DNA of 64,000 nt from positions 3,928 through 67,927 of the forward strand of contig JBMORM010000017.1 in the NCBI GenBank assembly GCA_049322675.1. The letters run 5' to 3'. This DNA is from Patescibacteria group bacterium. Its GTDB lineage: Bacteria > Patescibacteriota > JAHJAL01. The notes beneath the pieces are model-generated. The model did no database searches, had not been told where the DNA came from, and saw only the letters and a list, made by a program, of their open reading frames with translations. Position numbers and translations under genes: made by a program. This document shows, one piece after another, positions 7,147 to 19,088 of the stretch (the stretch's first letter is position 1; every line of letters begins with the position of its first letter).

Positions 7147-7297
7147 TTTCCAATTTTTCCCTCACGGGACCGAACTACTGCTGGCAATTTTCAATTTCCA
7201 AATATGTATTGATGGGTATTATAAATAATTTTATAAAACATTGAAGATTGGTAATTGGAAATTTTTTGAAAATTGAAAATTGAAAATTGGAAATTTT
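7147..7297. repeat. Repeat-family copy: TTCCAATTTT array + core ccctcacgggaccgaactactgctggc (7147-7203), about 50 bp spacer, inverted GGAAATT/GAAAATTG array (7254-7297)
   Basis: Direct reading; the same units recur at 7940, 10876, 11997, 12249, 16884, 17529, 19017 and 34013. Confidence 0.8.
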
Positions 7298-7356
7298 GTT
7301 TCGCGTGGTCTATATTGTGAATAGTGATTATTTTTATCAATAAGAGGGTGAGCGAT

Positions 7357-7872
7357 ATGGCACAAATAAATAAAAAACAAGAAGTGTTGGCGACAAGGCC
7401 GATTGATGAGGAATATGATCCCAATCAGGTGTTTGAATGGGAGTCATACGAATTTGAATATCATGAAAAAGGAAAAAACTGGGTTTGGGGATTGGTGGGA
7501 GTGGTGGTTTTGATGTCTGTATTGTTTGCGGTATTGAAAAATTGGTTGGGGATCGGTATAGTGGTTTTATTGGCGATTGTAGTTTACCAGTATGCTTTCA
7601 AGAAACCGGATAAAATTCATTTTGTTTTAACCAAAGATGGTTTACTGGTTGGGGACAAGATGTATGCCTTCAAAGAGTTGAAACAATTTTGGGTGACACA
7701 TGAAGGAATGTTGTATATTGATACCAAACAATATATTCCGCCAAGATTGTCTTCGATGTTGAGTTCGGTAGATGTGGAAGCGATGGTAAAATTTTTGGAA
7801 TACAATGTTCCAAAAGTTGATCGCAAGACGGCCGATTCGGGGGATCAATTGTCGAAATGGCTGAAGCTTTGA
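7357..7872 (+). CDS. Hypothetical protein with one TM helix
   Basis: ATG at 7357 preceded by AGAGGG SD; the ORF-track N-terminal extension (7324) lies in repeat DNA. Confidence 0.45.
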   Translation: MAQINKKQEVLATRPIDEEYDPNQVFEWESYEFEYHEKGKNWVWGLVGVVVLMSVLFAVLKNWLGIGIVVLLAIVVYQYAFKKPDKIHFVLTKDGLLVGDKMYAFKELKQFWVTHEGMLYIDTKQYIPPRLSSMLSSVDVEAMVKFLEYNVPKVDRKTADSGDQLSKWLKL

Positions 7873-7939
7873 TGTTTCAATACTGTTACTTTATTTTTTG
7901 TTAGGTTAATTTTTTCTATACGATAGATTTATTGGTTGA

Positions 7940-8047
7940 GAAATTTTCAATTTCCAATTTTCAATTTTCAAAAAATTTCCAATGATCAATTTCCAAATAT
8001 CGAATTCTAAATATGTTTGAAAATTGAGAATTGAAAATTGGAAATTT
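7940..8047. repeat. Repeat-family copy: inverted pair of TTCCAATTTTCAA arrays (7940-7998 and 8018-8047)
   Basis: ttttcaatttccaattttcaattttcaaaaaatttccaa ... ttgaaaattgagaattgaaaattggaaattt. Confidence 0.8.
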
Positions 8048-8060
8048 GTGTTTTGTATGT

Positions 8061-8134
8061 GCGCTCGTAGCTCAGCTGGATAGAGCATCAGCTTGCGGAG
8101 CTGGGGGTCGCAGGTTCGAATCCTGCCGAGCGCG
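8061..8134 (+). tRNA. tRNA-Arg (anticodon loop TTGCGGA, read as GCG)
   Basis: Cloverleaf GCGCTCG/CGAGCGC acceptor, GCTCAGCTGGATAGAGC D-arm, GGTTCGAATCC T-arm. Confidence 0.7.
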
Positions 8135-8138
8135 TTTT

Positions 8139-8165
8139 ATGAGGGGAAAATTCTTTTCCCCTCAT
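8139..8165 (+). terminator. Perfect 12-bp hairpin (atgaggggaaaa-ttc-ttttcccctcat) directly after tRNA-Arg
   Basis: Seen in sequence; no strong U-tail, so likely a processing/termination hairpin. Confidence 0.5.
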
Positions 8166-8250
8166 CGCTACGCTGCTCCCCTTTGAATAAAGTATCAAAA
8201 TCTCGAAATGAATTCGAAGATTTTGATGATAAATAGTCGGATCGATTCTT

Positions 8251-8290
8251 CCTCTTCCCAAAAATTTCTACGACAATTTTTGGGAGGGGA
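8251..8290. repeat. Palindromic hairpin element ctcttcccaaaaatt-tctacgac-aatttttgggagg; a second copy at 62203-62250 also flanks a tRNA-Arg
   Basis: About 14-bp arms around an 8-nt centre; near-identical copy at the other tRNA-Arg locus. Confidence 0.7.
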
Positions 8291-8377
8291 TTTGGGGAAG
8301 GAAAAAAAGAGTTTAATAATTTAATTAAGCTCTTTTTTTGTGTTAAAATTGGGGTGTAATGTATAAAAAAGAGAATT

Positions 8378-8890
8378 ATGAAAATATCGAGGGGATTGAA
8401 TAAATTTTTGAATCTGTTGGTGGTGTTATCTATTGTTGGTTTAGTTGTGTATTTATTGGCGACTGCGTTTCGTAATGAGACAGAGTTGTTTATTGCGGAT
8501 TATGGGATGTATATTCTTTTGGTGATGACGGGGGTTTTGCTTGGTTTGCTGGTGGCTTGTTTTGTTTTGAGTATTATTAATTTTGTCAGATTTGCCAAGA
8601 CAAAAAATAAAGATTTTTTGTATAAAGCGTTGCGATATTTGTTTGTTTTTCCGGTGGTTGTGGTAGTTTTGTATTCGGTGGGGGTGTATGTAATTGATAG
8701 TATTTATCTGGATAGAAATATGCGGGGGCCGAGTGGAGGCTTTTCGACGTGTTATATGCCGGTTAGTTTAAATAAATTGGATTCGAATGTTGTTAATCAG
8801 AAAAAAAAATCGAGTTTGGCGAGTTTGACGGAAAAATACAAAAATAATATTCCAGCGGATGTTTTGGAAAAAATTGATCGGGTTAAATAG
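8378..8890 (+). CDS. Small multi-pass membrane protein, paralog 1 of 3 (C-terminal tail ...STCY...KYKNNIPADVLEKIDRVK)
   Basis: 3-4 TM helices; shares KxKxKDFLY..LRYLFVFPVVV and the C-terminal NN(I/L)PADVLEKIDR motif with 9293-9760. Confidence 0.6.
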   Translation: MKISRGLNKFLNLLVVLSIVGLVVYLLATAFRNETELFIADYGMYILLVMTGVLLGLLVACFVLSIINFVRFAKTKNKDFLYKALRYLFVFPVVVVVLYSVGVYVIDSIYLDRNMRGPSGGFSTCYMPVSLNKLDSNVVNQKKKSSLASLTEKYKNNIPADVLEKIDRVK

Positions 8891-8898
8891 GAGGATTT

Positions 8899-9240
8899 GT
8901 GAGGATTTCTAAAATAGTAAGCGTGTTATTGAAAATATTAATTTCTTTGTCATTTTTATTTTTATTTTTATTTTTTTTATTGCTCTATTTCCCGAGTATA
9001 TTTTCTGGTTTTCTTGATTCAAACGAAAATATTATTAAAGCGATGTTTGGGGTTTTAACATTAGTTTTGGGAGTTGGTTTTTTTATATCTTTTTCTTATG
9101 GTTTTGTCCTTTTAGTTCAATATTTCAAGAAAAAAGACAAGAAATATCTATCAGAATCATTGAGATATTTATTGTTATATTCTTTGCTAGTGCTTTTTGC
9201 TGATTTGATTGTTGTAACCATTGGGAGAGTTATTCTTTAA
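8899..9240 (+). CDS. Small multi-pass membrane protein, paralog 2 of 3 (GTG start; ends at tandem TAA TAA just before the conserved tail-coding motif)
   Basis: AGGAGG SD at 8889-8894, GTG at 8899; KKKDKKYLSESLRYLLLYSLLV aligns with paralogs 1 and 3; ADVLEKIDRG is encoded in-frame after two stops. Confidence 0.5.
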   Translation: MRISKIVSVLLKILISLSFLFLFLFFLLLYFPSIFSGFLDSNENIIKAMFGVLTLVLGVGFFISFSYGFVLLVQYFKKKDKKYLSESLRYLLLYSLLVLFADLIVVTIGRVIL

Positions 9241-9292
9241 TAAGCGGATGTTTTGGAAAAAATTGATCGGGGTTAATTTTTTGGGAGGGAGT

Positions 9293-9760
9293 ATGAAAGG
9301 TGCCAAGTGGGTAAATATTGTTCTGGGAATTATTTTGGGGAGTCCGTTGGTTCTATTGGTCGTTTTTAGTATTTGGGGATATATTGCGGACGATTTGGAT
9401 TATATTGATGGTTCGCAAGTAGAGAATCTGTATTTTACTTTGGTTAATTATCTATTGGGGATTGGATTTTTGATTTCTTTGATATATGGATTATATCTTT
9501 TGGGTAGATATATTCATAAAAAGGACAAAGAAATAATGCTATTGTCTTGGCGATATTTATTGCTATTTCCTGTGGTTGTTTTTTTGCTTTATTGTATTGT
9601 TGTTACTGTTCAGATGGTGATTGCTCAACCTGGAGTAACGTCGTGTTATATAATATCAGGCGACGTTAGTTGGAAAAGAGTAAATGAAAAATCAGATTTA
9701 TTAGCAAAATTTAAAAATAATCTTCCGGCGGATGTTTTGGAAAAAATTGATCGGGGTTAA
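9293..9760 (+). CDS. Small multi-pass membrane protein, paralog 3 of 3 (tail ...TSCY...FKNNLPADVLEKIDRG)
   Basis: GGGAGG SD then ATG at 9293; the ORF-track start at 9221 reads the junction repeat in another frame. Confidence 0.6.
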   Translation: MKGAKWVNIVLGIILGSPLVLLVVFSIWGYIADDLDYIDGSQVENLYFTLVNYLLGIGFLISLIYGLYLLGRYIHKKDKEIMLLSWRYLLLFPVVVFLLYCIVVTVQMVIAQPGVTSCYIISGDVSWKRVNEKSDLLAKFKNNLPADVLEKIDRG

Positions 9761-10763
9761 AGCCGATTTTAATCATTTTATTTATGAAGTGACGCCAAGC
9801 TGCAATCATGATTGCAGTTATTGTTATAATGTTTGGAAATATCGGGAATATCCTCAGGGACAATTGTTGGATTTGAGACAGTGGCAGGAAGTTACAGAGA
9901 GGTTGATGGAGCAGACAAATATTGGAACGGTTTCTATTTCCGGGGGAGAGCCGACTATATATCCGGATTTGGTGGTGTTGATCAAATATCTTCGAAGCAA
10001 AAAAATTAATGTCAATTTGTTGACCAACGGTAGCAATATTATTGAAGATTTAGCTAGAGAGTTGGTTGATTTAGATATTTCTATTTTTGAAATACCGTTG
10101 GTGGCGATAGACAAAGAATTGCACAAAAAGTTGAAAGGTCGGGATGATTATGATCAGGTGGTAAAAGGGATTGCTAATCTGACTTCTTTGGGAGCGACAG
10201 TTGTATCTGTCCTGGTGGCGACAAAAGATAATATTGATCAAAGCGCGGAAGTGGCGGAGTTGAGTATGGTTTTGGGTTGTCGGGGAATGATGTTCAATCG
10301 GATCAATCCGGCCAATAAAAAACAGATTGCTTTGATACCGTCAATTGAGCAAATCAAATCGGCGTTGGCAAAATTGGATATTATTTCCAATAAATATAAT
10401 TTTAGTATTAGCTGTTCAGTGCCGATCATGCCATGTTTGATCGATATGAAAAATTATAAAAATTTGTCCTATGGCTATTGCCCGGCCGGTGGCAAACGTT
10501 CATATCCGGTGATTGATTATTTGGGAAATGTGCGGGTGTGCAATCATTCGCCGAAAATATTGGGAAATATATTGGCGAAAGATTTGGATGATATTTTTTC
10601 GAAAAGTGAGTATTTTCAAAATTTTAAAAATTCATTTGCGGACAAGTGTCAGAAGTGTTCACTGGTTAAAGAATGTAAGGGTGGTTGTCGGGCGGCAGCG
10701 GAAGTGTGCTATGGTTGTTTGACAGATTTGGATCCGATGGCGAGGGAGAGGGGGAGTTTTTAA
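9732..10763 (+). CDS. Radical SAM enzyme with C-terminal SPASM-type Cys-rich domain (peptide-modifying maturase-like)
   Basis: CNHDCSYC (CxxxCxxC) near the N-terminus, GGEPT SAM-binding motif, C-terminal CPAGG...C...C..C...C..C SPASM-like cysteines. The start ATG lies inside the conserved junction motif. Confidence 0.8.
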   Translation: MFWKKLIGVKADFNHFIYEVTPSCNHDCSYCYNVWKYREYPQGQLLDLRQWQEVTERLMEQTNIGTVSISGGEPTIYPDLVVLIKYLRSKKINVNLLTNGSNIIEDLARELVDLDISIFEIPLVAIDKELHKKLKGRDDYDQVVKGIANLTSLGATVVSVLVATKDNIDQSAEVAELSMVLGCRGMMFNRINPANKKQIALIPSIEQIKSALAKLDIISNKYNFSISCSVPIMPCLIDMKNYKNLSYGYCPAGGKRSYPVIDYLGNVRVCNHSPKILGNILAKDLDDIFSKSEYFQNFKNSFADKCQKCSLVKECKGGCRAAAEVCYGCLTDLDPMARERGSF

Positions 10764-10875
10764 TTTATAAAAATATAGGTTGAAAAAAGTAGGATGTCGT
10801 CCTGGATATTGAAACGCCCAGTAGGGCTTTCAGTTCCAGGATGACACAATACAATCATTGATCATTCATTGATCA

Positions 10876-10917
10876 TTGGAAATTTTTTGGAAATTGAGAA
10901 TTGGAAATTGGAAATTT
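10876..10917. repeat. Repeat-family copy (GGAAATT orientation) embedded between two tcctgga-stem hairpins and 13-bp direct repeats ttccaggatgaca (10834-10846, 10957-10969)
   Basis: Direct reading. Confidence 0.75.
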
Positions 10918-10970
10918 CATCCTGGATCCTGGATAAGAAGCGTGATTACACTTTCTTTCCAGGATGACAT

Positions 10971-11243
10971 TTGAACAAGAGAATAATTGATATTTTTTTA
11001 ATGAAATATTCTATGGAAGAAATAATTATTTTTGTATTTAGGATAATCTTTGGTTTGGGGGCTGTGACTGCGATTTTTTTTCTTATTTATGGCTTGGTAA
11101 GATATTTTTTGTCACGTGGTGAAAAATATTTTCGGATGTTTGTTTTGTCATTAGTATCGTTGCTTATATTGTTTGCAATATATTCGGTGCTAGTTACTTG
11201 CAATGATTGTAATTGGCCAGAAAGTAATGCAATTATTAAATAA
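10971..11243 (+). CDS. Hypothetical small membrane protein (2 TM)
   Basis: Hydrophobic helices, ends CNDCNWPESNAIIK. Confidence 0.4.
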   Translation: MNKRIIDIFLMKYSMEEIIIFVFRIIFGLGAVTAIFFLIYGLVRYFLSRGEKYFRMFVLSLVSLLILFAIYSVLVTCNDCNWPESNAIIK

Positions 11244-11288
11244 TTAATTGTTCGTAATCCATCTCATTTTTTATGCTAAAATTGGGGT

Positions 11289-12806
11289 ATGACAAATGAG
11301 AGGAGAAAATTTGTTCCTACCTGGTTTTTGACGATGTCACAGATATTTTTTCTGATGCTAATTTTTTGTTGGCCGTTGGGAACCAGATTGCAGTGGTTGG
11401 GTGAATTTTCATATTTGGGAGGTGTGATTTCTGATCTGACGACATATTTTGTTTATGTGACTGATATTTTGTTGGTATTGGTTATTTTGGGTTGGTTGAT
11501 TGATATAGCGATAAAATTTTGGCGATATGAAGATTGGGATGAATGGAATTTGAATCCGTGGCAGGGGATGGTGGTTTTGTTTTTTGGTGGTTTGGCCGGT
11601 TGGGGCTTGTATTCGACTGTGTGGGCGATGATAGATGAAATTGCTTTGTATAAAGGATTACGGTTGGTGGGGATGTGGTGGCTATTTGCATATATTGTGT
11701 TGGTTGTTGGTAAAAATAAAATTTTAATAAGAAATACTTGGTTGGTTGGGTTGGCGACATTGGGTATTCAAGCAGTTTGGGGGATAGCTCAATATATAAA
11801 ACAAAGCGGATTTGGTTTGTGGCAGTTGGGGGAAAGTATTTTGGGAAAAACGGTGGCGGGAGTGGCGAAAGTAGATGTGGATGGAGAGAAGATAATAAGG
11901 GCGTATGGATCTTTGCCGCATGCGAATCTTTTTGGGGTATTTATGTTGTTGGGACTAATTTTGATACTTGTAATATTAGTTTATTCTGGGTGCGGCAAAA
12001 ATTTCCAATTTTCAATTTTTCCCTCACGGGACCGAACTGTTGCTGGCAATTTTCAAAAAATTTCCAATTTCCAATTTTCAAAGAATACTTCAACAATTAT
12101 TTTGGGAGTGCTACTGGGACTATTTTTGGTAGGGATGTTGGTGAGTTTTTCAAGAAGTGTGTGGGTGGCGGGGATGGTGATAATGGTTGGAGCAATTGTT
12201 GAGATGGTTCGTAGGGGCGAGGTTTCCTCGCCAGGGGAAGGGAAGGGGAAAAATTTTCAATTTTCAATTTTCAATTTCCAAAAAATTTCCAATTTTCAAA
12301 CAATATTGATAGGGTTATTTATTTTGTTAATAGCGACAGGATTGAATTGGAAAGTAGTTATGGGGAGGTCTAGTTTGGATGTGGGGAATGATGTGTCTTT
12401 GCAGGTACGGCAGGTTTATGATCAGGGGGCGGATTGGATGATTGAAAAATTTTATTATGGCGGGGTAGGGTTGGGAAATTTTGTATTGGTGTTGCCGTAT
12501 TTTGCCGGTAAGGCCAATCTACAGTGGTGGCAATATCAGCCGGTTCACAATGTTTTCAAATTGGTTTGGTCGGAACTGGGCGTTTTTGGTTATATTTTGT
12601 TAATATTACTTATGGTTAGTATTGCAGCGATGATATTGTTTGATGATCAAAAAAAGTATCCCAAATATTTTTGGTTAAGTGTTATTTTGTCGATGATATT
12701 TTTGATGTTTTTTGATCATTATTTCTGGGATGTGTGGCAGGGGATGATGGGGTGGGCGGTGTTTCTGGGGGTTATGGTGGTTGGGGGAAGTAGTAAAAAA
12801 ACTTAG
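11289..12806 (+). CDS. O-antigen ligase/polymerase-family (Wzy_C) membrane protein carrying two in-frame repeat insertions
   Basis: SFSRSVWVAG and QPVHNVFKLVWSELGVFG motifs of the O-antigen ligase family; repeat copies at 11997-12083 and 12249-12300 translate in-frame. Confidence 0.6.
   Translation: MTNERRKFVPTWFLTMSQIFFLMLIFCWPLGTRLQWLGEFSYLGGVISDLTTYFVYVTDILLVLVILGWLIDIAIKFWRYEDWDEWNLNPWQGMVVLFFGGLAGWGLYSTVWAMIDEIALYKGLRLVGMWWLFAYIVLVVGKNKILIRNTWLVGLATLGIQAVWGIAQYIKQSGFGLWQLGESILGKTVAGVAKVDVDGEKIIRAYGSLPHANLFGVFMLLGLILILVILVYSGCGKNFQFSIFPSRDRTVAGNFQKISNFQFSKNTSTIILGVLLGLFLVGMLVSFSRSVWVAGMVIMVGAIVEMVRRGEVSSPGEGKGKNFQFSIFNFQKISNFQTILIGLFILLIATGLNWKVVMGRSSLDVGNDVSLQVRQVYDQGADWMIEKFYYGGVGLGNFVLVLPYFAGKANLQWWQYQPVHNVFKLVWSELGVFGYILLILLMVSIAAMILFDDQKKYPKYFWLSVILSMIFLMFFDHYFWDVWQGMMGWAVFLGVMVVGGSSKKT
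11997..12083. repeat. Repeat-family copy with core (ttccaattttcaattttt-ccctcacgggaccgaactgttgctggc-aattttcaa...) inside the ligase CDS
   Basis: Direct reading; no stop in the host frame. Confidence 0.8.
12249..12300. repeat. Repeat-family copy (TTTTCAATTTTCAATTTTCAATTTCCAAAAAATTTCCAATTTTCAA) inside the ligase CDS
   Basis: Direct reading. Confidence 0.8.
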
Positions 12807-17528: not shown

Positions 17529-17643
17529 AAATTTCCAATTTCCAATTTTCAAAAAAGGCTTAATTTCCAATTTTCAAACAAAATTCATTGGAAATTGGTC
17601 ATTGAAAATTTATTGGAAATTGAGACTTGGAAATTGGAAATTA
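17529..17643. repeat. Repeat-family copy: inverted pair of arrays (17529-17577 TTCCAATTT orientation; 17588-17643 GGAAATTGG orientation)
   Basis: Direct reading. Confidence 0.8.
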
Positions 17644-17659
17644 TTTTCTATAAATTATT

Positions 17660-19033
17660 TTGAAATTATCTTTCATAAATAAATATTCTTTGTTTTATTG
17701 TTTGGCTGGATTTGGCTTGTTGCTTTTGTATGCTTTGTTGTCGGTAATCGATGTAAAATTGGCGATGGGAGTGATGGGGGCGGGGATATTATTTTTTCTG
17801 TTTTGGTTGGATCTTAGATGGGGAATTGTGGTTTTATTGTTATCGGTTTTGTCGGGTCAGATTGTTCGTTTTAGTTTTGGTTCGGCGGCAATATTGCCTT
17901 CGGATGGAGTAATGGTGGTATTGTTATTGGTCTGGATTTTGAAAATACTGGTAGAAAAGAGGAAATTGGTATTTGATGTTACAATTGTTTCCTTGCTGGT
18001 ATTTTGGGTGGTTAGTCTGGTAATAAATTTGGCGATTGTGGATCGTTATGAACTCCAGCAACAGAAGACGATTTGGCTATATTGGTTAAGATTGATTATT
18101 TATTCTACTTGTTTGCCGATAACTATGAATATTGTTAATTGGTATGGCGAACAAAAGAAATTTTTTAGATGGTTTATTTACCTGGGATTGGCGTTTTTGG
18201 TTTTGGGTTTTGTGCAGTTGGTGATTTTGCCTGATATAAGTTTTTTAACGGATTATGGCTGGGATCCTCATCAGGGGAGATTGCTTTCAACTTTTTTGGA
18301 TCCCAATTTTGCCGGAGCGTTTTTGATAATATGTTTTGCGGTGAGTTTTAGTATGTATTTCGGGCAAGTAAAATGGAATAAACAGAAATTATGGTGGATA
18401 GTATTGAGTGGATTATTTTTGGGTGGAATTGTTTTGACTTTATCTCGTAGCGCTTTGGTTTCTTTGGTTTTTGTATTTGGTTGGTTAGCGTGGTGGTGGG
18501 ATAAAAGATTGTTGTTGTTTGGTTTATTTACTTCAATTACTTTGTTGATCAATGATCAGAGGTTGATGCAACGGGTGGTGGGGATAGTGGAATTTGATGA
18601 AACAGCAATGTTGAGATTGCAATCCTGGAATGATAGTTGGCAGATTGTGCAAGATAATTTTTGGACGGGGATTGGGTACAACGCTTTGTCGTTTGAACAG
18701 TTTCGTCGGGGCATAATTACTGATATCAATGTTCATTCGGCGGGCGGATCGGATAGTAGCTATTTGACAATTTGGACAACTCTGGGGTTGATAGGACTGT
18801 TTTTTTGGCTTTTGATTTTTGTTTTTTTTGTGTCTCGATCGATAACGATGTATTGGAAAGAAAAAAAAGATCAGAGTCAGAAATTTTTGATTTTGGGAGT
18901 GGTGTTGGCGGTTTTGGGAGTAATGATTCACGCTCAGTTTACCAATAGTATGTTATATGTGCATATTATGATTCCGGTTTGGTTTTTGATGGGAGTAGTG
19001 CTGGGAGGAAAAGATAAAATTTCCAATTTCTAA
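17660..19033 (+). CDS. O-antigen ligase/polymerase-family membrane protein (second paralog); start uncertain
   Basis: LTLSRSALVSL and HSAGGSDSSYLTIWTTLGLIGL (H...YL...LG..G) motifs; the last codons (KISNF*) are encoded by the palindromic repeat. Confidence 0.55.
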   Translation: MKLSFINKYSLFYCLAGFGLLLLYALLSVIDVKLAMGVMGAGILFFLFWLDLRWGIVVLLLSVLSGQIVRFSFGSAAILPSDGVMVVLLLVWILKILVEKRKLVFDVTIVSLLVFWVVSLVINLAIVDRYELQQQKTIWLYWLRLIIYSTCLPITMNIVNWYGEQKKFFRWFIYLGLAFLVLGFVQLVILPDISFLTDYGWDPHQGRLLSTFLDPNFAGAFLIICFAVSFSMYFGQVKWNKQKLWWIVLSGLFLGGIVLTLSRSALVSLVFVFGWLAWWWDKRLLLFGLFTSITLLINDQRLMQRVVGIVEFDETAMLRLQSWNDSWQIVQDNFWTGIGYNALSFEQFRRGIITDINVHSAGGSDSSYLTIWTTLGLIGLFFWLLIFVFFVSRSITMYWKEKKDQSQKFLILGVVLAVLGVMIHAQFTNSMLYVHIMIPVWFLMGVVLGGKDKISNF

Positions 19034-19088
19034 TTTTTAATTTTTAAACATATTTTGTTTAGAAATTAAAAATTAGAAATTAAAAATT
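19017..19088. repeat. About 70-bp imperfect palindrome variant of the repeat family (tttccaatttctaatttttaatttttaaac-atatt-ttgtttagaaattaaaaattagaaattaaaaattt), ending 7 nt before the next gene start
   Basis: Direct reading; close homolog at 34013-34082. Confidence 0.8.

Follow-up and report, generated by a model that had tools for sequence, protein, structure and literature searches.

We report the analysis of a gene cassette in a 64,000-nucleotide stretch of DNA from a Patescibacteria group bacterium (contig JBMORM010000017.1, positions 3,928 to 67,927 of the forward strand). This whole stretch is hereafter called the window, and coordinates are those of the window unless another locus is named. 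Three tandem paralogous genes for small membrane proteins, P1 (8378-8890), P2 (8899-9240) and P3 (9293-9760), are followed on the same strand by the gene for a radical S-adenosylmethionine (SAM) enzyme of the SPASM type (9732-10763). The enzyme and the proteins beside it that carry a tail with a Cys-Tyr dipeptide, P1 and P3, probably constitute an undescribed protein-modification system, as judged from sequence comparisons across many phyla. We consider it likely, though well short of certain, that the locus is a two-gene maturase-substrate cassette whose enzyme modifies the cysteine and/or the tyrosine within a 'CY module' of ~45 amino acids. An earlier sequence-only reading of the window had already suggested a maturase encoded beside its substrates; comparison with other genomes supports that suggestion, with the correction that of the three paralogues only P1 and P3 can be substrates.

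Recurrence of the enzyme beside a Cys-Tyr partner

Relatives of the enzyme are encoded by 305 GTDB species genomes, belonging among others to the Planctomycetota, Chloroflexota, Armatimonadota, Vulcanimicrobiota, Myxococcota, Kiritimatiellia, Synergistia, Pseudomonadota and Thermoplasmatota, and homologues at 34-87% identity span more than 10 phyla of both bacteria and archaea. A word-indexed search returned 238 proteins with E<=1e-10, many of the relatives lying at 34-50% identity, while an exhaustive profile search gave at least 150 clusters (formed at 50% identity) with E<=1e-59.

The pairing of enzyme and motif was measured over 80 fetched loci, 78 of which had enough upstream sequence. 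At 73 of these 78 a Cys-Tyr dipeptide is found in the adjacent upstream open reading frame (ORF) on the same strand, which often overlaps the enzyme gene, and the neighbourhood comparison thereby extends to other genomes an association that the sequence-only reading had drawn from one locus. The density of the dipeptide is 6.3 per 1000 amino acids in the partner proteins as against 0.47 in the other long ORFs of the same loci, and the pattern [TS]-C-Y-x-[PM] stands beside the enzyme at 55 of 78 loci but in only 5 of 539 control ORFs. Over 133 distinct sites the context reads [AVPIM]-T-C-Y-[EADK]-P-[MAV], with Thr at -1 in 71% and Pro at +3 in 61%; T-C-x is completed by Tyr in 103 of 111 cases, and 49% of all partner cysteines precede a tyrosine. 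The pairing was also seen at loci that were read individually (L002-L011, L093, L095 and L096, in our numbering of the loci). On these comparisons it is not peculiar to the source genome and is part of a large uncharacterised family.

No third gene is common to the loci when ORFs of at least 90 amino acids within 4.5 kb of the enzyme are clustered over all 80. Fusions of enzyme and partner of the 'Rosetta-stone' kind were also looked for, and the long matches inspected contained no Cys-Tyr module, several being tandem radical SAM proteins from other families. A scan of metagenome contigs for close relatives yielded 3 loci. The close relatives within the Patescibacteria keep the synteny with a varying number of paralogues: one in L004 and L012 (enzyme 84-87% identical), two in L002 and one in L003 (55%). 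The partners at these four loci all overlap the enzyme start, and all combine x-C-Y with the end KYK(N/D)(N/K)LPxxV(L/V)xKI. Three tandem paralogous Cys-Tyr genes upstream of one enzyme are found in the Armatimonadota and some Anaerolineae (L009/L010, 2790-4975; L090, 2704-4995), so that amplification of the partner, as in the window, recurs independently in distant lineages.

A separate subfamily of SPASM enzymes

The sequence-only reading had recognised a radical SAM enzyme with a SPASM-type cysteine cluster, and both domains are detected in the 343-residue protein by Pfam (PF04055, Radical_SAM, 92.1 bits with a cutoff of 29.5; PF13186, SPASM, 26.8 bits with a cutoff of 21.5). The CX3CX2C motif, at C24/C28/C31 (nucleotides 9801-9824), is invariant in 33 homologues. 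The SPASM cysteines at residues 235, 250, 270, 306, 309, 315, 319 and 326 (nucleotides 10434-10709) are likewise conserved. They were compared with the seven-cysteine motif CX9-15GX4C - CX2CX5CX3C - C, which denotes two auxiliary 4Fe-4S clusters, and run as C250-X15-G-X4-C270, C306-X2-C309-X5-C315-X3-C319 and C326, with the invariant C235 in addition; eight conserved cysteines suggest a full set of ligands for each auxiliary cluster.

Matches to the radical SAM core in both Pfam and NCBIfam begin at residue 17-18, from which it follows that the enzyme has no N-terminal domain of the RiPP recognition element (RRE) type, where RiPP stands for ribosomally synthesised and post-translationally modified peptide. 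The AlphaFold2 (AF2) model of the enzyme, with a predicted local distance difference test score (pLDDT) of 93, has alternating strands and helices and just a 6-residue helix ahead of strand 1. Its fold matches include SuiB, SkfB, PqqE and anSME, with anSME giving the best full-length superposition (TMq 0.74-0.76), and the closest sequence in the PDB is PqqE (6c8v, E=1.5e-10). None of the equivalog cutoffs of NCBIfam is reached. The best sequence relatives, MftC (TIGR03962, 91.6 bits against a cutoff of 265, E=5e-26) and PqqE (TIGR02109, 85 bits against 381, E=4.7e-24), fall far below theirs, as do anSME (TIGR03942, 55 bits against 349.45), AlbA (55 bits against 850) and StsB (64.5 bits against 625). 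By sequence the enzyme is thus a separate SPASM subfamily. The placement agrees with the peptide-modifying role proposed in the sequence-only reading inasmuch as no family of non-peptide function is reached and the nearest folds are those of peptide- and protein-modifying enzymes.

Partner proteins and the CY module

Outside the motif the partners are unrelated: clustering left them in separate clusters and only 2 sequence relatives of P1 were found, so that relatedness among the partners had to be followed by way of the enzyme. Each partner carries 1-5 copies of the motif, including tandem KPTCYAP repeats (L020, L030, L031 and L059), and at least four architectures can be distinguished. Class (i) comprises two- and three-transmembrane mini-proteins with a C-terminal tail, from the Patescibacteria, the Thermoplasmatota and unassigned metagenome contigs. 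Class (ii), from the Chloroflexota and in similar form from the Armatimonadota, consists of helical proteins of ~230 amino acids that resemble twin-arginine translocation (Tat)-signal proteins or lipoproteins and have two sites. Class (iii) is made up of N-terminally anchored proteins of 250-800 amino acids with 1-4 modules (Planctomycetota, Kiritimatiellia and Myxococcota), and class (iv) of peptides of ~130 amino acids with 4-5 tandem KPTCYAP units (Vulcanimicrobiota and Synergistia). Apart from the Tat signal none of the partners belongs to a Pfam or NCBIfam family, and at least 455 proteins of the Chloroflexi type are annotated as 'hypothetical' or 'twin-arginine translocation signal domain-containing'. 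A Tat-like RR motif, a lipobox-like motif or a hydrophobic N-terminal segment is present in most of the partners from other phyla.

A hidden Markov model (HMM) was trained on seven class (i) tails from outside the Patescibacteria (L006b, L007a, L008, L093, L095, L096a and L096b). It aligns 'kFenkvPkdvLeKI' to the tails of the window with 28.4 bits for P1 and 23.7 bits for P3, scores that are reached by 0 of 500 shuffled tails in which the Cys-Tyr context was held fixed. Searched against all 465 stop-to-stop ORFs of the window, the model finds P1 (E=2.6e-7) and P3 (E=9.9e-6), with the next match at E=0.71. The training tails L006b and L096a do not overlap an enzyme gene, which argues that the motif is selected at the protein level too.

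A helix pattern, G[KT][LIV]..x[VA]x.[KR]x, occurs in 18 of the 73 partners as compared with 4 of 539 controls; in 14 of the 18 the helix comes after the site and in the remaining 4, all of class (iv), before it. Wherever the pattern matches in classes (ii) and (iii) the helix begins ~30 (28-31) residues past the Cys-Tyr dipeptide, and in P1 the sequence NNIPADVLEKI begins 31 residues after the cysteine, while class (iv) proteins have a similar helix, GTLSEDIAARI, ahead of the repeats. These comparisons establish the homology of the module within class (i) and make a single CY module, common to all classes, likely.

In the AF2 model of a Chloroflexi partner, which is all-helical and has no significant fold match in the PDB, both sites lie in low-confidence loops between helices. 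The Chloroflexi-type partners also share the invariant residues His86, His117-x-Trp119-Arg120-Ser121, Glu172 and Asp174 (alignment A3, P0123 numbering), all on predicted helices, which may point to the binding of a metal or cofactor close to the second Cys-Tyr.

Proposed mechanism and comparison with known systems

We propose that P1 and P3 are small membrane-anchored proteins whose tails would each amount to one CY module of ~45 residues, that is, a flexible T-C-Y-x-P site and, ~25-31 residues further on, a short amphipathic helix, which reads NN(I/L)PADVLEKI in the window and GK(L)xPxVLxKV in other phyla. The enzyme would dock on this distal helix, and its 5'-deoxyadenosyl radical would abstract a hydrogen atom at the Cys-Tyr dipeptide. 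Of the conceivable outcomes we would favour an intramotif thioether from the sulfur of Cys to the alpha or beta carbon of the neighbouring Tyr, followed by an anSME-like oxidation of the beta carbon of Cys and, in third place, by a Cys-Tyr aryl crosslink. A radical SAM enzyme of the enteropeptins closes a six-membered thiomorpholine ring between Cys and a second residue (PMC12395415), a ring size which implies that the two joined residues are adjacent. More generally, we put forward tentatively, as a serious possibility, that T-C-Y-x-P marks an unrecognised modification, widespread in bacteria and occurring also in archaea, which a dedicated SPASM enzyme would install on exported or membrane-anchored proteins by way of the built-in module of ~45 residues rather than through a leader peptide and RRE. 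Its product could be a new kind of crosslink between Cys and Tyr inside the motif, such as a thioether carried on a protein or a redox-active Cys-Tyr unit at the cell surface.

Several observations weigh against this proposal. Selection was on 'CY', and the invariance of the dipeptide is therefore partly by construction, a reservation that does not touch the flanking Thr, the flanking Pro or the 13-fold enrichment. When the tail helix of the window is compared directly with the Planctomycete helix by HMM, the real score is reached by 34 of 300 and 6 of 300 shuffles, and it is because these direct tests are suggestive rather than decisive that we hold homology as established within class (i) and as likely across the classes. 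The P3 site, T-S-C-Y-I-I, deviates from the consensus. The charge bias of the short loops would place the tails outside, while their Lys-rich distal part would suit the cytoplasm; outward tails, together with the export signals on most partners, would mean that a cytoplasmic Fe-S enzyme has to act before translocation. Modification of the module before export or membrane insertion is the simplest general scheme. Lastly, and with low weight, CteB-type thioether synthases leave an open cluster site, unlike the eight-cysteine enzyme described here.

Among the known enzymes anSME comes nearest in architecture and in the kind of substrate, acting as it does on a local Cys-containing motif in proteins with no leader peptide and no protease. 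It is, like the present enzyme, a single-polypeptide radical SAM/SPASM protein of about 350-370 amino acids without an RRE domain, and it too has eight SPASM cysteines, consistent with two fully ligated auxiliary clusters. The substrates of anSME are destined for export, so that there, too, modification must come first. The differences lie in the partners, which here are not sulfatases and have no Pfam or NCBIfam family; in the motif, which is T-C-Y-x-P plus a distal helix (with Pro at +3 and no conserved Arg) rather than C/S-x-P/A-x-R; and in the gene order, since the enzyme gene here adjoins, and often overlaps, that of its partner.

The radical SAM/SPASM maturases of sacti- and ranthipeptides (AlbA, SkfB, CteB and the enteropeptin sactisynthase) convert Cys thiols to thioethers, and SkfB is among the top fold matches of our enzyme. 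Unlike AlbA, StsB and CteB, however, the present enzyme has no RRE domain and no conserved RRE gene beside it; here a thioether would be formed on Tyr, in proteins that are anchored. A Tyr is the target of PqqE and MftC, each of which works on a ribosomal peptide whose gene lies close by. They need a separate RRE protein, PqqD or MftB, and further pathway genes, none of which is present here, and their substrates are soluble peptides of 20-30 amino acids with no Cys at the site, unlike our partners. Genes for MftA, a peptide with Val-Tyr at its C-terminus, and for MftB were found neither in the neighbourhood within the window nor as a conserved feature of the loci, and there are no pqq genes among the neighbours in the window. 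QhpD is a radical SAM/SPASM enzyme that installs Cys thioethers in the small subunit QhpC of quinohemoprotein amine dehydrogenase, which ends up outside the cytoplasm. That system differs from ours in its dedicated protease and exporter, neither of which was found at the loci studied here, and there are no qhp genes at our loci, whose partner sequences are unrelated to QhpC.

It might be supposed that the tails are RiPP precursors, in which the membrane part would serve as leader or anchor and the modified Cys-Tyr tail or repeats would be split off to act as a free bioactive peptide. SPASM enzymes commonly serve as RiPP maturases, with SuiB and SkfB among the nearest folds, and the partners at L020, L030, L031 and L059 would suit this explanation well, being a short leader and 4-5 KPTCYAP units without a hydrophobic N-terminus. 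Most partners, however, are signal- or membrane-anchored proteins of 200-800 amino acids in which the motif is embedded between helices; the enzyme lacks an RRE domain; and the peptidase or exporter that the sequence-only reading suggested looking for nearby did not emerge, no protease, exporter or RRE protein being conserved beside the cassette over the 80 loci or lying near it in the window. We regard release of a peptide as unlikely, and the system has more the look of protein maturation than of a pathway that cleaves and exports a peptide natural product.

The enzyme might instead act on something other than protein, for example a cofactor, a lipid or a sugar from the pathway of envelope polysaccharides, whose genes lie downstream, with the Cys-Tyr proteins as membrane partners, carriers or acceptors; this seems to us about as improbable as release of a peptide, if not slightly more so. 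The Patescibacteria cassette does lie among genes for a Wzy-like protein, a Wzx flippase and glycosyltransferases, small-molecule SPASM/twitch enzymes do exist, one of which, BtrN, is among the fold matches, and the enzyme has weak NCBIfam matches to NirJ2, AhbD and MoaA that are comparable in strength to its MftC and PqqE matches. Against this, the polysaccharide context is not conserved outside the Patescibacteria, where the Cys-Tyr partner alone is; the variable copy number of the motif and its tandem arrays are more readily reconciled with a site of modification than with a binding partner; and the top fold matches act on peptides or proteins.

Anatomy of the locus and the 28-nucleotide repeat

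The four genes of the cassette come after a tRNA-Arg gene (8060-8135). The three tandem membrane-protein genes are as the sequence-only reading described them: each product has three hydrophobic segments, with an acidic first loop and a second loop rich in Lys/Arg, and P3 shares 35% identity with P1 (E=2e-17) and 34% with P2 (E=3e-14). The Cys-Tyr dipeptides and the common end noted at that time in the first and third paralogues are likewise present, in tails of 56-63 residues that contain STCYMP (P1) or TSCYII (P3) and finish in (Y/F)KNN(I/L)PADVLEKIDR. P1, of 170 amino acids, has a tail of 63 residues with one complete CY module (S-T-C-Y-M-P); Cys125-Tyr126 (8750-8755), as indicated by the motif logo of partner sites, is the proposed site of modification, and P1 can be regarded as the canonical putative substrate of the enzyme. 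In P3, of 155 amino acids, the corresponding dipeptide is Cys118-Tyr119 (codons at 9644-9649) and the same terminal helix follows. P2, of 113 amino acids, consists of the transmembrane part only: it ends immediately past the third hydrophobic segment, lacks the Cys-Tyr tail, has no match to the tail HMMs and is probably not a substrate. For P3 we adopt the start at ATG 9293, which is preceded by a GGGAGGG Shine-Dalgarno sequence and agrees with the start of the orthologue in L002, while a mechanical ORF list places it at TTG 9221.

The start codon of the enzyme was correctly placed inside the tail motif of P3 by the sequence-only reading. The ATG at 9732 lies 29 nucleotides before the P3 stop codon (9758-9760), and the enzyme start has no Shine-Dalgarno sequence of its own, which together indicate tight translational coupling. 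A programmed frameshift from P3 into the enzyme at the A-rich GGAAAAAATTG was considered and rejected: the enzyme is in frame +1 relative to P3, not -1, and the genes of the relatives are separate. A promoter-like element, TGTGTTAAAAT, with an extended -10, is found on the forward strand at 8322-8355, ~30 nucleotides upstream of P1, where it would presumably act as a promoter; a near-copy in direct repeat stands at 11255-11288, ahead of the next transcription unit, that of the Wzy-like gene. A scan of 7800-11400 for Rfam-type riboswitches and other RNAs found the tRNA-Arg alone.

The end of the tail is encoded by an exact repeat of 28 nucleotides, GCGGATGTTTTGGAAAAAATTGATCGGG, which is present in three copies on the forward strand of the window where 0 would be expected by chance. 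Copy 1 (8855-8882) encodes ADVLEKIDR of the P1 tail. Copy 3 (9728-9755) is dual-coding, specifying ADVLEKIDR of the P3 tail and, in the +1 frame, the start of the enzyme, MFWKKLIG, whose ATG is supplied by the GAT GTT (Asp-Val) codons of the tail; the same arrangement is found at L003, L007, L008 and L093. Copy 2 belongs to a relic of 33 nucleotides (9244-9276; the 28-nucleotide copy at 9244-9271 plus GGTTAA) that directly follows the TAATAA double stop of P2. Read in frame the relic would give ADVLEKIDRG and a stop, and an ATG within it (9248) is in frame with P3. As the last 33 nucleotides of a tail are kept after its stop codons, P2 can be understood as a paralogue that lost its tail; readthrough of P2 into the relic is ruled out by the two consecutive TAA stops.

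The tails of the two paralogues in L002, where the enzyme is 75% identical, share 57 identical nucleotides, including 3 past the stop codon, and the tail end in L002 differs from that of the window at 3 of 33 positions. P1 with L002-A and P3 with L002-B form orthologous pairs that are older than the split of the two genomes, so that the identity of the tails within each genome points to concerted evolution by gene conversion and not solely to purifying selection on the peptide. Given dual coding and concerted evolution, the almost invariant end that had caught the eye in the sequence-only reading is by itself no evidence for a functional tail. The part of that claim which stands is that the conserved end is a real protein motif, as the HMM matches of P1 and P3 indicate; its exact identity over 28 nucleotides derives also from the two nucleotide-level processes.

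That the tail end should be a mere by-product of gene overlap and gene conversion, with the Cys-Tyr dipeptide incidental, is suggested by the threefold 28-nucleotide identity with its untranslated relic, by the shared tail nucleotides of L002 and by the source of the enzyme ATG, but it is very improbable and already largely refuted, in that the motif is kept in tails that do not overlap the enzyme (L096, 2868-3086, with RLPTDLLSKI; L006, 4453-4674; and P1), the HMM from outside the Patescibacteria picks out P1 and P3 specifically, and Cys-Tyr is enriched also in phyla without any gene overlap.

Surroundings of the cassette

The neighbours of the cassette in the window are the envelope polysaccharide genes named above. 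Ahead of the tRNA gene, which is a tRNA-Arg(GCG), lies a gene (7324-7872) for a protein of ~170-180 amino acids with one or two transmembrane segments (FEWESYEFEYHEKGKNW). This protein and the tRNA precede the cassette in L002, L003, L004 and L012 as well, a lineage-specific synteny not seen in other phyla. Between the cassette and the Wzy-like gene all close relatives have a mini membrane protein of 75-90 amino acids ending in TCNDCNWPESNAIIK (window 10971-11243; L002 7933-8160; L004 3377-3640), which is without Cys-Tyr and has no family match. A membrane protein of 127 amino acids is encoded right after the enzyme in L002 (7067-7450), L004 (2589-2972) and L005 (1695-2078), its gene being found neither in the window nor in L003; its Cys-rich C-terminal domain has 12 cysteines, including RKCYDNN, and it is at most a possible further substrate.

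The 207-nucleotide gap that follows the enzyme contains, at 10780-10960, hairpin-forming copies of TCGTCCTGGAT..TCCAGGATGACA with no match in Rfam. In L002 a near-identical element, differing by a few bases, stands beside a GIY-YIG endonuclease gene (7535-7834) inserted at the equivalent place, and the element in the window may be the footprint of such a mobile GIY-YIG element.

A dispersed AT-rich repeat built on GAAATTGGAAATT gives 11 matches to the 24-mer between 7 and 19 kb, with 0 expected, at 7241-7296, 7936-8047, 10864-10918, 11994-12082, 12246-12307, 17529-17643 and 19017-19040. Two copies lie in frame within the Wzy-like ORF (11289-12806), where they read KNFQFSIFNFQKISNFQ, and the L002 orthologue has similar insertions. 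The tRNA-Arg and the cassette are flanked by inverted repeats of 51 nucleotides (7940-7990 and 10868-10918), which might be taken to mark a mobile island; they are not specific, the same element occurring 11 times at 7-19 kb, and the idea was rejected. GC skew is positive across the window (1-64000) and extremely high, at +0.18 to +0.49 in 2-kb windows. It is positive also in two regions whose long ORFs run on the minus strand (28.3-32.2 and 50.7-58.3 kb), which makes a strand-wide compositional bias likely and argues against an effect of the coding strand.

Novelty and significance

A SPASM maturase with an adjacent substrate is a known kind of system. The enzyme subfamily and the T-C-Y-x-P motif appear to be undescribed, as do a recognition module built into the substrate, substrates that are anchored or exported proteins, and a two-gene layout without an RRE. 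No model in Pfam (2025) or NCBIfam (June 2026) covers the enzyme subfamily or its partners, and full-text literature searches, whose coverage is incomplete so that an earlier description is possible, found no paper on the pairing of enzyme and motif.

Much new peptide chemistry comes from radical SAM/SPASM maturases, and most known SPASM systems rely on leader peptides, RRE domains and small soluble precursors. The present family is unusual among them, being encoded in at least 305 species with, as its only conserved neighbour, the carrier of a sharply delimited five-residue motif and a short helix. It affords a concrete prediction of which residues would be modified and of which ~45 residues would suffice for recognition, and it may reveal new chemistry of Cys or Tyr. 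If the proposal is true, several hundred 'hypothetical' and 'Tat-signal' proteins of the Chloroflexota and Planctomycetota would acquire a role. The mini membrane protein of the Patescibacteria and Thermoplasmatota, with the start codon of the enzyme inside its tail, would represent the system at its smallest, and in the Patescibacteria the system would then be among the few specialised enzymatic systems that their reduced genomes have kept.

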